Shown: positions 45,001-48,000 of the stretch, piece by piece
Layout of the letters: each line of letters starts with the position of its first letter
Position numbering within the stretch: position 1 is the first letter of the stretch
Assembly (NCBI GenBank): GCA_038244585.1
Contig: JBBRTI010000001.1
Coordinates: 37-64,036 of the forward strand
Direction of reading: 5' to 3'
Source of the DNA: Candidatus Saccharimonadia bacterium
Lineage (GTDB): Bacteria; Patescibacteriota; Saccharimonadia; UBA4664
Length of the DNA stretch: 64,000 nt
Made by a program: the position numbers

Positions 45001-48000
45001 AGGCAGATATTGAGCTCTTCCTCGTGGCGGCTGAGATCTTCTCCGAGCCGGGTGTAATCGTTCGGGTCGTCCATATCCATTTGCCGGAGACTCATTTGGC
45101 TGCCGAGTTTTTTGAGTTGTGCGTCATCTGGGGTGACGTGCTCGGACTTCAACTGTTCTTTGAGGGCTGCAATAAGAGTGTCGACGCTTGTTTCGCGGCG
45201 GCTGACGCCCATGATTATGAAGCTGTCCGGCATGAGGCCGTCCCCGAGCAGATGGTAGAGCGCGGGTAGAAGTTTTCTGGCGGCCAGATCCCCGGTAATA
45301 CCAAAGATGGTCAGAACGCCAGCGTTTAGCGGGCTGGTCATTTATTTACCGGATGGCCGCCGAAGGCGTTGCGGAGGGCGGCCAGAAGCTTAGTTCCGAA
45401 ATTCACCGTACCTTCTTGGGACGCGGCGCGCACGTCAACTGCCACCTGTAGAGCAGGCATAGCGATACCTTCTGTTGCCGCAGCCTCGAGCGTCCAGCCG
45501 GCTTCGCCGTTTTCTGCCACGTAGCCGCTGACGCCGGTGAGATCAGGATTAGCGCTCAAGACTTCTGCCACCAGGCCGTTGAGGCCGGATGCGATAATAC
45601 TGCCATGCTGCCAGACCTCTGCGACACGCGCCAGATCAATATCCTTGGCCGATCCGTCCTTGAGCAGGCGGTAACCTTCGGCGTAGGCCTCCATGGCGGC
45701 GTATTCGATACCATTATGAATCATTTTGATGTAGTGGCCAGTGCCGGTCGGGCCGAAGTGCGCCCACCCGTCAATCTGTGCCAGGCTCACCAGGACGGGC
45801 GTTACCGTTGCCACTGCAGCGTCGCTGCCACCCACCATCATGGAAAAGCCGTCTTTGATACCCAGGATGCCGCCGCTTGTGCCCACATCCACCAGCTCCA
45901 AGCCACTCGTTTGGACGGCTGCCGCGCGCTTCAGGGTTTGGCGGAAGTCGGAATTGCCGCCGTCGACGATAATACTGCCAGCTGGCAGAAGCCGGGACCA
46001 GGCCTCTATTTCTGCCTCAACGAAACCAGACGGAATCATTAACCACACGACAGGTGTTTCGGATCCTTCAAGCTGCTTCACGAGGTCTTCCCGAGTGGCC
46101 GCAGCGGTAGCACCTTGTGCAACAGCAGATTCGACCGCCGCAGCCGCTAAGTCCATAACTACCACCTCATGACCGTCGTTTAGCAGACGGGTCGTTATTT
46201 GTAAGCCCATTTTCCCTAGGCCAATTAAACCGATTTTCATGTTGTCTCCTTATAATCGCTATAAATATGCAATAATCCGGCCCGCTTGAGCGCCTGTACG
46301 GGCTGCTCATCCATAGGCAGGTCATCCTTAATATGGGCTAGTTGTGGCCATTTCTCTTTGCCGATGGCGACGAGGACGGCTTCGTCCAGCTGCTGAATGG
46401 CCTGAGGCGTCATGGTAATACGGGTGTAGCCCGTGCAGTCGTAATCGGAAACCAATTCTGTGCTGCTAACCGCTTCGCTTCCAGGCATGATACCGCCGGT
46501 GTGGCCGTCGGCCCCCATGCCGAACAGGCCGACTTTAAAGCTCGACAGCAAAAACTGGTCGGACAGGTGAGTTTGGTAGTCGGTCATGGTTTCGGGAAGA
46601 GTCTGGCCGATGAGGGTCGGAAGCAGTTGGGCGTGAGGCAGATCAAACCCGGCTACAAGCAGCTGCTGCCAGTTGCTGTCATCGTGTCCCACCAATCCGT
46701 AGCGTTCATCAACGAGCATGACGGTGAGGGTCCCGGCGTCGATATCATGTAAATACTCTGCTGCCTTAGACGCCACGGCAATCGTCGAGCCGCCTGATAC
46801 CAGCCACAGGACCGATTCTGAATCCCGCAAGCGGTCGCGGATCGTGGTCCCCAGATATTCGGCTGCGGCTTGTATGGGGTCCTTGTCCCGAATGAAGGTT
46901 GGGTTCACAGCGTGCTGCCTCGCGAATCATTAGTGTTTTAAGCTTATCACGCTCCGCCGTTATTGTGTTATTGCACAAAGAAAATCCCGGAAAAATGTCC
47001 GGGATTTTCTTTGGAGCGGGTAGAGGGAATCGAACCCTCGACTCAACCTTGGGAAGGTCGCATTTTACCCCTAAACTATACCCGCGTAACAAATGCGTGC
47101 AGCGCGCCCTGCGTCGTCGCTTCTTCCAGCCCTCGCTCAGCGTACTAGGTATGCTTTGTTCCGGGCTTCAGTCGCTTCTTGCATTGCATCGCTGCACGCA
47201 TTTGTTGCTGGAGCCGATGAGGGGATTGTCGCTGTGCGACCCTCCGCCTTGATTGCCTACGGCAAGCGGCTCCGGCCGAACCGAGACGTTCTCATGCTAA
47301 ATACATTTGGAGCCGATGAGGGGATTCGAACCCATGACCTACGCTTTACGAAAGCGCCGCTCTACCAACTGAGCTACATCGGCTAACCACATCATTGAAG
47401 CACAAAAAGGGGATTAGGGTCTAGTACGGCGGCGAAAATGCTATAATCCCCATATGAAACTTCCTGATGGCCTCGGCCGACTACTGCAATTTTTCCGGTC
47501 GACCTACAATGAAGTGCGCCGCTCCCGCTTTGCCGGAGATAAACTGTCCGTGGGGCTCGTAATCGGTTCGCTCCTCGTTAGCGTCCTGACTTTCGTGACG
47601 CTCCTGGGGAGCGTGCATCCTGCGATGCAGGGGGCTATTCGTTTTTCGAGCCTGGATGTGGGCTACACCCTTGGGGTTTGGTACTACCCTTATCTGGTTG
47701 CCATCTTCGGGCTTGGTGTCATATTGGTTAATTCCGTCCTGGCCTATCAGGCCTATGGTCGCAACCGCTTGGCGAGCTTCTTTTTGTTGTCCGGCAGCGG
47801 GGTGGTGGTCATCTTTTGTCTCATCATCGCTAACGCCCTGGGAGCCGCCAAATGAAGCCTGCCCAGATTGCCAGCAGCCGGATAATCGATCGCCGATGGT
47901 TCATCCGGTTGTTCGAAATCCTTCCTGGAGTTCTGACCTATTCCATACTCATCGGTCCGGTGGTACTGAGTATGTTTATTCCGGTGGCAGTGGCATATTT

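Follow-up and report, generated by a model that had tools for sequence, protein, structure and literature searches.

The tRNA-Thr(CGT) and tRNA-Gly(CCC) genes of a Candidatus Saccharimonadia bacterium (GenBank assembly GCA_038244585.1, contig JBBRTI010000001.1, positions 37 to 64,036) lie 222 nt apart, with a second copy of the tRNA-Thr 3' end and a perfect inverted repeat between them. How did these two features come to occupy the spacer of a tRNA gene pair, and do they belong together? A first-pass annotation of this 64,000-nt stretch (hereafter the window, to which coordinates refer unless another locus is named) took them jointly as a site-specific recombination scar, the attL/attR remnant of an integrative element now almost entirely deleted, or else as a small structured insertion resembling a miniature inverted-repeat transposable element (MITE). 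All the sequence features that it described are confirmed, with two distances corrected by one base each. The scar reading is partly supported, and the spacer is not the fresh scar of a lost mobile element. The account that we favor, and to which we give roughly even credence, is that the spacer holds two unrelated old insertions, a dispersed palindromic element and a duplication of the tRNA end, which are tolerated or mildly constrained.

The source clade of the window is Saccharimonadia (TM7, of the Candidate Phyla Radiation, CPR), and the relatives retrieved with the proteins of the flanking genes are likewise Saccharimonadia/Saccharibacteria. Comparisons were made with about 40 related loci, each a 13-kb stretch, which are designated here by L numbers. 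The nearest informative relatives of the window strain have 70-85% protein identity to it, and by its flanking proteins the window is the outgroup, at this distance, to a clade formed by L076, L079, L084, L081/L001 and L078, whose members share 80-90% protein identity among themselves. The Thr(CGT)-Gly(CCC) gene pair is kept in ~35 related lineages and its spacer varies widely in length, being 0-12 nt in 18 of them, 23-42 nt in five, and 117-474 nt in nine, with different content in each of the nine long spacers. Given that most relatives have 0-12 nt at this position, the short state is ancestral and the 222-nt spacer of the window is an insertion complex; the Thr-Gly spacer is a hot spot for insertions.

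A family of imperfect hairpins near gene ends

The inverted repeat consists of two 17-bp arms (47088-47104 and 47190-47206) that are 100% complementary and enclose 85 nt, one fewer than first reported; 0.22 matches are expected by chance when up to three mismatches are allowed. Two nucleotides separate it from the tRNA-Gly 5' end, as the annotation had described, and another two from the second copy of the tRNA-Thr end on its other side. Folding of the region as RNA, which the annotation had proposed, gives a long imperfect hairpin on the minus strand (47086-47208) of -58.2 kcal/mol (z = -6.8), and in this predicted structure of ~120 nt the two 17-bp arms pair with each other as the basal stem. 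The element (47088-47206) is defined by its fold, by covariance model R1, by covariation, and by a set of G·A loops, and we refer to its purine-loop strand, which is the minus strand in the window, as the hp strand.

Homology searches that started from a profile of the window and L004 spacers recovered L018, L023 and L010. When metagenomes were scanned for the apex motif, L072 (identical to L073) and L075 joined the family, and the contigs of close relatives contributed L076, L077, L084 and L090; an additional apex-motif match in L074 lies inside a coding region and was discarded as chance. Matches with nhmmer and with the covariance model were obtained for L004, L018, L023, L010, L072, L075, L076, L084 and L090, and the family is present in nine independent lineages, in either orientation. 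The consensus structure from nine members has 42 pairs, and 88.8% of the consensus cells are paired, compared with 23-41% in controls with slid partners. Double-sided changes are seen in 31 of the 42 pairs, and none of 500 shuffles reached the observed values. The apex is conserved in sequence (GAAGCCCG..GAGCGAG-CCGUAC-loop-GUACGG-UGAGCGAGG..CUGGA), and the basal stem differs in sequence in every lineage while its pairing is nearly perfect.

The two strands of the hairpin are not equivalent. On the hp strand purines make up 80% of the unpaired positions and 52% of the paired ones, and there are up to four conserved internal loops, mostly with GA opposite GA, on one strand only. Because the unpaired positions are purine-rich in this way, the hp strand has a purine excess (57-62% overall) and folds better than its complement, which is the case for eight of ten members with RNA parameters and for all ten with DNA parameters. 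Covariance model R1 makes the same distinction in the window, scoring the minus strand at 114 bits and its complement at 15, and one U·G pair is conserved in eight of the nine members.

The hairpin is a single-copy feature of the window, even when search filters are turned off, and no copies beyond the members listed were found in ~585 kb of related DNA, which yields 11 matches in loci that for the most part were fetched because of the element. Rfam searches returned only tRNAs (47086-47307 at E <=10, the whole window at the gathering threshold, and six related loci at E <=1), and literature searches on non-coding repeats of Saccharibacteria retrieved nothing relevant. The hairpin family is uncatalogued and undescribed, and its known distribution suggests a low-copy, Saccharimonadia-specific family of ~120-nt imperfect hairpins.

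Several other identities were considered and rejected. None of the known Rfam families, including signal recognition particle (SRP) RNA, 6S RNA and Y RNA, has a meaningful match over 47086-47307, and when the apex was compared by eye with SRP RNA domain IV, no GNRA-closed helix was found and L004 does not keep the candidate bases. The conserved R'/R'' boxes of an integron attC site are missing, and there is no adjacent reverse transcriptase such as a retron non-coding RNA would have. A 97-aa open reading frame (ORF; 47093-47386, plus strand) extends across the hairpin and the 19-nt copy and continues antisense to tRNA-Thr; its frame is not conserved in L076, it has no significant Pfam match, and we regard it as spurious. 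As the indels among homologues are not multiples of three, the hairpin is not coding.

The position of the hairpin relative to genes is regular at one end. Its 3' end lies 0-7 nt from a gene boundary in all nine lineages, the boundary being either the 5' end of tRNA-Gly (2-3 nt downstream), the 3' end of an opposite-strand tRNA-Thr (2-3 nt away) or the stop codon of an opposite-strand gene (0-7 nt away); there is no comparable regularity at the hairpin 5' end. In the window, L004 and L076/L090 the hp strand has the same sense as the tRNA operon, and L018 and L084 carry it antisense to the tRNAs; in L010, L023, L072 and L075 it is antisense to the neighboring protein genes. In the last two of these lineages (L072 1549-1668 and L075 2810-2929) the hairpin occupies the gap between rpsO and pnp, 6-7 nt beyond the stop codon of rpsO, with the hp strand antisense; in E. 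coli this gap holds the rpsO terminator and the pnp RNase III hairpin. L084 contains a complete reverse-oriented hairpin together with only the 3' arm of a window-type copy (GCGCTGCACGCATTTGTT) next to tRNA-Gly, an arrangement that therefore requires two insertions and one deletion at one site. Orientation was also compared with replication using GC skew, which is negative on the hp strand in seven of ten loci and not significant.

In its behavior the hairpin may be compared with palindromic repeats of the ERIC and REP types. Like ERIC/IRU, REP/BIME and Correia elements and MITEs, it lies in transcribed intergenic DNA, occurs in either orientation near gene ends, and is conserved across species, and the palindromes of the ERIC/IRU, REP/BIME and Correia types are also comparable in size and form to a ~120-bp imperfect hairpin. 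It differs from them in an apparently low copy number (one in the 64 kb of the window, and about four in related loci that total 450 kb), in having a conserved center with variable ends, no target-site duplication and purine-rich loops on one strand, and in being unrelated in sequence and absent from Rfam. The suggestion of a MITE-like or structured insertion was thus close to what the hairpin is; its terminal inverted repeats, unlike those of a MITE, are not conserved among the copies.

Duplication of the tRNA-Thr 3' end

The tRNA-Thr(CGT) gene (47308-47383, minus strand) is intact, as judged with ARAGORN and by a score of 69.1 bits with the Rfam tRNA model, and its last 19 nt (copy 1; 47308-47326) recur exactly at 47209-47227 (copy 2), also in minus-strand orientation. 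Both copies read TGGAGCCGATGAGGGGATT on the plus strand and lie 99 bp apart start to start, a correction of one base pair to the 100 bp first given; 0 matches are expected from shuffles. On the tRNA strand the repeat extends from A58 in the T loop to the end of the CCA (A76), and copy 2 is not accompanied by a tRNA 5' part. An 80-nt unit (47228-47307, minus strand) lies between the copies and together with copy 2 forms a 99-bp module (47209-47307). The unit is single-copy, is found only in the window, L076, L090 and L091, and contains two small hairpins (UUGCC-GUA-GGCAA and GUCGC-ACA-GCGAC). Copy 2 is kept in L076, L090 and L091, where the order is as in the window: tRNA-Thr, a ~80-nt segment, copy 2, the hairpin, and tRNA-Gly. 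The module was also considered as a tRNA pseudogene; however, it has no match to the tRNA model, and its identity to tRNA-Thr breaks off abruptly at A58, in L076 as in the window.

The hairpin homologues in L004, L018, L084, L010, L023, L072 and L075 occur without any tRNA copy, and the hairpin and the 19-nt repeat are therefore independent modules. Since the module is common to the window and the L076 clade, it is either older than their split or has been exchanged between lineages.

Both copies of the repeat have C at position 64 of the tRNA in the window and T in L076, L090 and L091 (the form AATCCC[CT]TCATCGGCTCCA covers both variants), so that copy 2 tracks the resident tRNA-Thr. The U-C mismatch that had been reported in the T-stem of tRNA-Thr involves this same position (U50·C64) and is real, being flagged by the covariance-model alignment. 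It had been taken as a sign that the 3' part of the tRNA was rebuilt from element-borne sequence, and this we can discard: U50·U64 occurs at the same T-stem pair in the short-spacer relatives L009-L011, L022, L037 and L041 (2-12-nt spacers), and L086 has U·C without any duplication. The mismatch, present in relatives without the insertion, is thus a trait of the lineage.

When the window is compared with L076, identity is 89% in the upstream region, 97% in tRNA-Thr, 84% in the 80-nt unit, 95% in copy 2, 75% in the hairpin, 100% in tRNA-Gly, and 61% in the downstream intergenic region. The 80-nt unit and copy 2 are better conserved than neighboring non-coding DNA. Within the unit both small stems are kept and the loops have changed, and one stem has been shortened by matched loss on both arms. 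A comparison of L076 with L090 by eye is similar, with the 80-nt unit unchanged and the hairpin different at about five positions. Conservation of the unit and the joint change of the 19-nt copies are unlike what an inert, decaying scar would show.

The closest tested precedent for the 99-bp module is the set of E. coli tyrT/tyrV 178-bp repeats (rtT / RttR, tpr). There too the unit that follows a tRNA gene has at its end an exact copy of the final 19 nt of this tRNA, the region is inside the tRNA transcription unit, and a small RNA (sRNA) is annotated on the repeat; in our check of E. coli K-12, the last of the repeats (761-963) shares 19 nt with the 3' end of tyrV (945-963), at the annotated sRNA RttR. 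The two differ in that the whole 178-bp unit is present in about three tandem copies in E. coli, whereas in the window repetition is confined to the 19 nt, with a single 80-nt body; moreover, there is no sequence similarity, and in the window another tRNA follows.

When 101 tRNA genes of the Saccharimonadia loci were screened, a 3'-end repeat turned up once more, as a three-copy array at tRNA-Asp. In L035 (455-935, minus strand) two additional copies of the last ~18-25 nt of tRNA-Asp(GTC) stand after this gene, with spacings of 172 and 165 nt, and each of these is followed by a 22-bp terminator-like hairpin beginning with CCA. This array shows that duplication of tRNA 3' ends arises locally in this group without islands.

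Origin and possible function of the spacer

In the two-insertion account, an ancestral Thr-Gly spacer that was almost empty would have been filled later by two unrelated insertions. The hairpin (47088-47206) would be a duplicative or mobile palindromic element, ERIC/REP-like in behavior and not a recombination-site arm, that landed repeatedly 0-7 nt from gene ends and in either orientation relative to local transcription. The 99-bp module would go back to a single recombination event, older than the split of the window and the L076 clade, in which the 3' end of the tRNA was duplicated; since that split the module would have been kept more conserved than neighboring non-coding DNA, with both 19-nt copies identical. 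The 222 nt are probably transcribed within a Thr-Gly precursor extending from the promoter region upstream of tRNA-Thr to a terminator-like hairpin after tRNA-Gly (46976-47013, minus strand), which has a 16-bp perfect stem with a U-rich 3' arm. This inverted repeat was read from the sequence and is a probable end of the Thr-Gly transcription unit; a simple terminator scan made no call for it. Release of the two tRNAs, by RNase P cleaving 2 nt past the hairpin and by the enzymes that mature tRNA 3' ends, would excise the spacer.

A number of observations weigh against this account. The flanks that were inspected have no target-site duplication, common flank or flanking motif, the hairpin copies have no conserved terminal repeat and a basal stem that differs from lineage to lineage, and no transposase was found in association with them. 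The description of the element as mobile is based on its differing contexts within the 13-kb loci, not on several copies per genome. The hairpin of L076/L090 is decaying: its basal stem has acquired changes that are not compensated, and the model scores are 85 and 66 bits, compared with 114 in the window. L084, a deletion derivative within its clade, has lost copy 2 and most of the older hairpin, and neither module is therefore indispensable. The joint change of the 19-nt copies has been seen in only two independent lineages. A tRNA-like three-way fold of the 99-nt unit is significant in the window (z = -3.3) and not in L076 (z = -0.3), and was rejected as a conserved structure. Finally, transcription and processing of the spacer are steps that we infer.

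We hold it possible, tentatively, that the spacer instead encodes one or more functional RNAs released from the tRNA precursor: a ~99-nt RNA mimicking the tRNA-Thr 3' end and trimmed like RttR, with selection keeping copy 2, and the hairpin perhaps as a second, protein-binding or processing module. The conservation of the unit and copy 2 above that of flanking non-coding DNA speaks for such an RNA, as do the stems that are kept while their loops change, the matched loss on both arms of one stem, the agreement of copy 2 with the tRNA at position 64, and the tested E. coli precedent; the U·G pair in eight of nine hairpin members and the G·A/G·A loops on one strand would suit a structured RNA as well. 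These points are offset by the lack of the module in L084 and most relatives, by an overall fold of the 99-nt unit that is not conserved, and by the decay of the hairpin in L076/L090, and in six of the nine lineages the hp strand is antisense to the local transcript, with no recognizable promoter of its own.

The integrative-element scar, in which a tyrosine-integrase element entered the T-loop-to-3'-end site of tRNA-Thr, regenerated the tRNA (copy 1), displaced the native end (copy 2), and was then deleted to 80 bp, we consider unlikely. What survives of it is the insertion site and the anatomy of a displaced 3' fragment. The repeat runs exactly from A58 to the CCA, in direct orientation and downstream of an intact tRNA, and the boundary of identity, which is sharp, has the same position in L076 as in the window. 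This is the extent usual for att repeats of tRNA genes (bioRxiv 10.1101/2020.11.02.365908; PMC4383910), the first of these sources placing their start in the T loop or the anticodon loop; both also define the displaced tRNA 3' fragments that mark genomic islands or prophages. In its intact tRNA with a direct T-loop-to-CCA copy downstream, the locus resembles Islander-type att repeats; it differs in having 80 bp between the repeats, no integrase or cargo, no occupied allele in relatives, and copies that evolve together. L076 has TTTAAAA directly after copy 2, resembling the tRNA-Thr trailer TTTAAGA of L079 and L086, as expected if copy 2 were the native end, yet this likeness is not significant (z about 1), and trailer alignment does not identify which of the two copies is native.

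The rest of the evidence runs against a scar. None of the ~40 related loci holds an integrase, cargo or a large element at this site, where the longest spacer is 474 nt, and the 80 bp between the repeats contain no ORF. Viral contigs were scanned for the motifs of the 80-nt unit and of the hairpin apex, for the 19-mer in its exact form, and for a 16-mer with degenerate positions; no element with any of these sequences and no attP-like fragment came to light, the matches being chance or whole phage tRNA genes. The two modules are independent and the arrangement is old; joint change of the copies and an 80-nt unit conserved above neighboring non-coding DNA would not be expected of junk, and the tandem tRNA-Asp 3'-end repeats of L035 arose without islands. 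Integration inside polycistronic tRNA units is reported to be disfavored (10.1101/2020.11.02.365908).

A more far-reaching proposal is that the hairpin is a new, Saccharimonadia-specific class of structured RNA or single-stranded DNA, made of short helices and four tandem G·A loops and put 0-7 nt from the ends of genes or tRNAs by a targeted mechanism, that the 99-nt unit is an RNA mimicking the tRNA end and held identical to tRNA-Thr by selection, and that both, far from being debris, function in tRNA/mRNA 3'-end metabolism of these reduced genomes; we regard the proposal as improbable. That the repeats arose by chance in an ordinary spacer has only the small size of the features in its favor and is refuted by the 0 expected 19-mer matches, the hairpin z of -6.8 and the homologues of both features.

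Variability of the tRNA pair and its significance

The genes flanking the tRNA pair encode 6-phosphogluconolactonase, a 6-phosphogluconate dehydrogenase-like protein, a small membrane protein, and a 563-aa putative glycosyltransferase. The tRNA-Gly(CCC) gene of the window (47012-47085, minus strand; found with ARAGORN and the Rfam tRNA model), whose 5' end follows the hairpin by 2 nt, is identical in sequence in L076, L084 and L089. A second tRNA-Gly(CCC) variant, different in the D-arm and T-stem, is present in L001, L079 and L081, and in L079 and L081/L001 it accompanies an unrelated 41-42-nt spacer. The distribution of the two variants over the close lineages does not follow the protein phylogeny, which suggests, as far as these sequences go, recombinational exchange of a segment comprising the spacer and tRNA-Gly.

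Other long spacers have contents of their own. Those of L012 (2150-2601) and L014 (1597-2070), 452 and 474 nt in length, contain a conserved ORF of ~93-99 aa on the opposite strand, with the motif LHxxLCxxNHTDxCGWxYGSW and no Pfam match, and in L012 the 12-mer CCAGGAATTATT follows both tRNAs, with a close variant in L014. The 117-nt spacer of L015 (3900-4016) ends in GUGAAGCC...UGAGCG directly before tRNA-Gly; this end may be a degenerate remnant of the hairpin family, and the hairpin covariance model does not detect the L015 spacer.

The window strain's own proteins occur only on Logan contigs that are broken inside both tRNAs. The short-read contigs L042, L043 and L085, from the window strain and a 92%-identical relative (SRR22742761), end inside tRNA-Gly or tRNA-Thr, and the spacer is therefore missing from those assemblies. 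Strains that occur together may have the tRNAs in common and differ in the spacer.

CPR and Saccharimonadia genomes are small and streamlined, and to our knowledge few non-coding elements have been described in them. The present analysis is a useful correction and not a breakthrough: the locus is not a new category, and it is the hairpin family itself that is new to description, as either a structured RNA of a new kind or a small element, likewise new, that is mobile or duplicative. Elements of this kind help to explain the hypervariable tRNA spacers of Saccharimonadia genomes. The copy of the tRNA-Thr end, together with the tRNA-Asp case in L035, indicates that tyrT-like 3'-end repeats may recur in tRNA operons outside the enterobacteria, and such recurrent repeats bear on the origin of tRNA-linked small RNAs and of att-like repeats.

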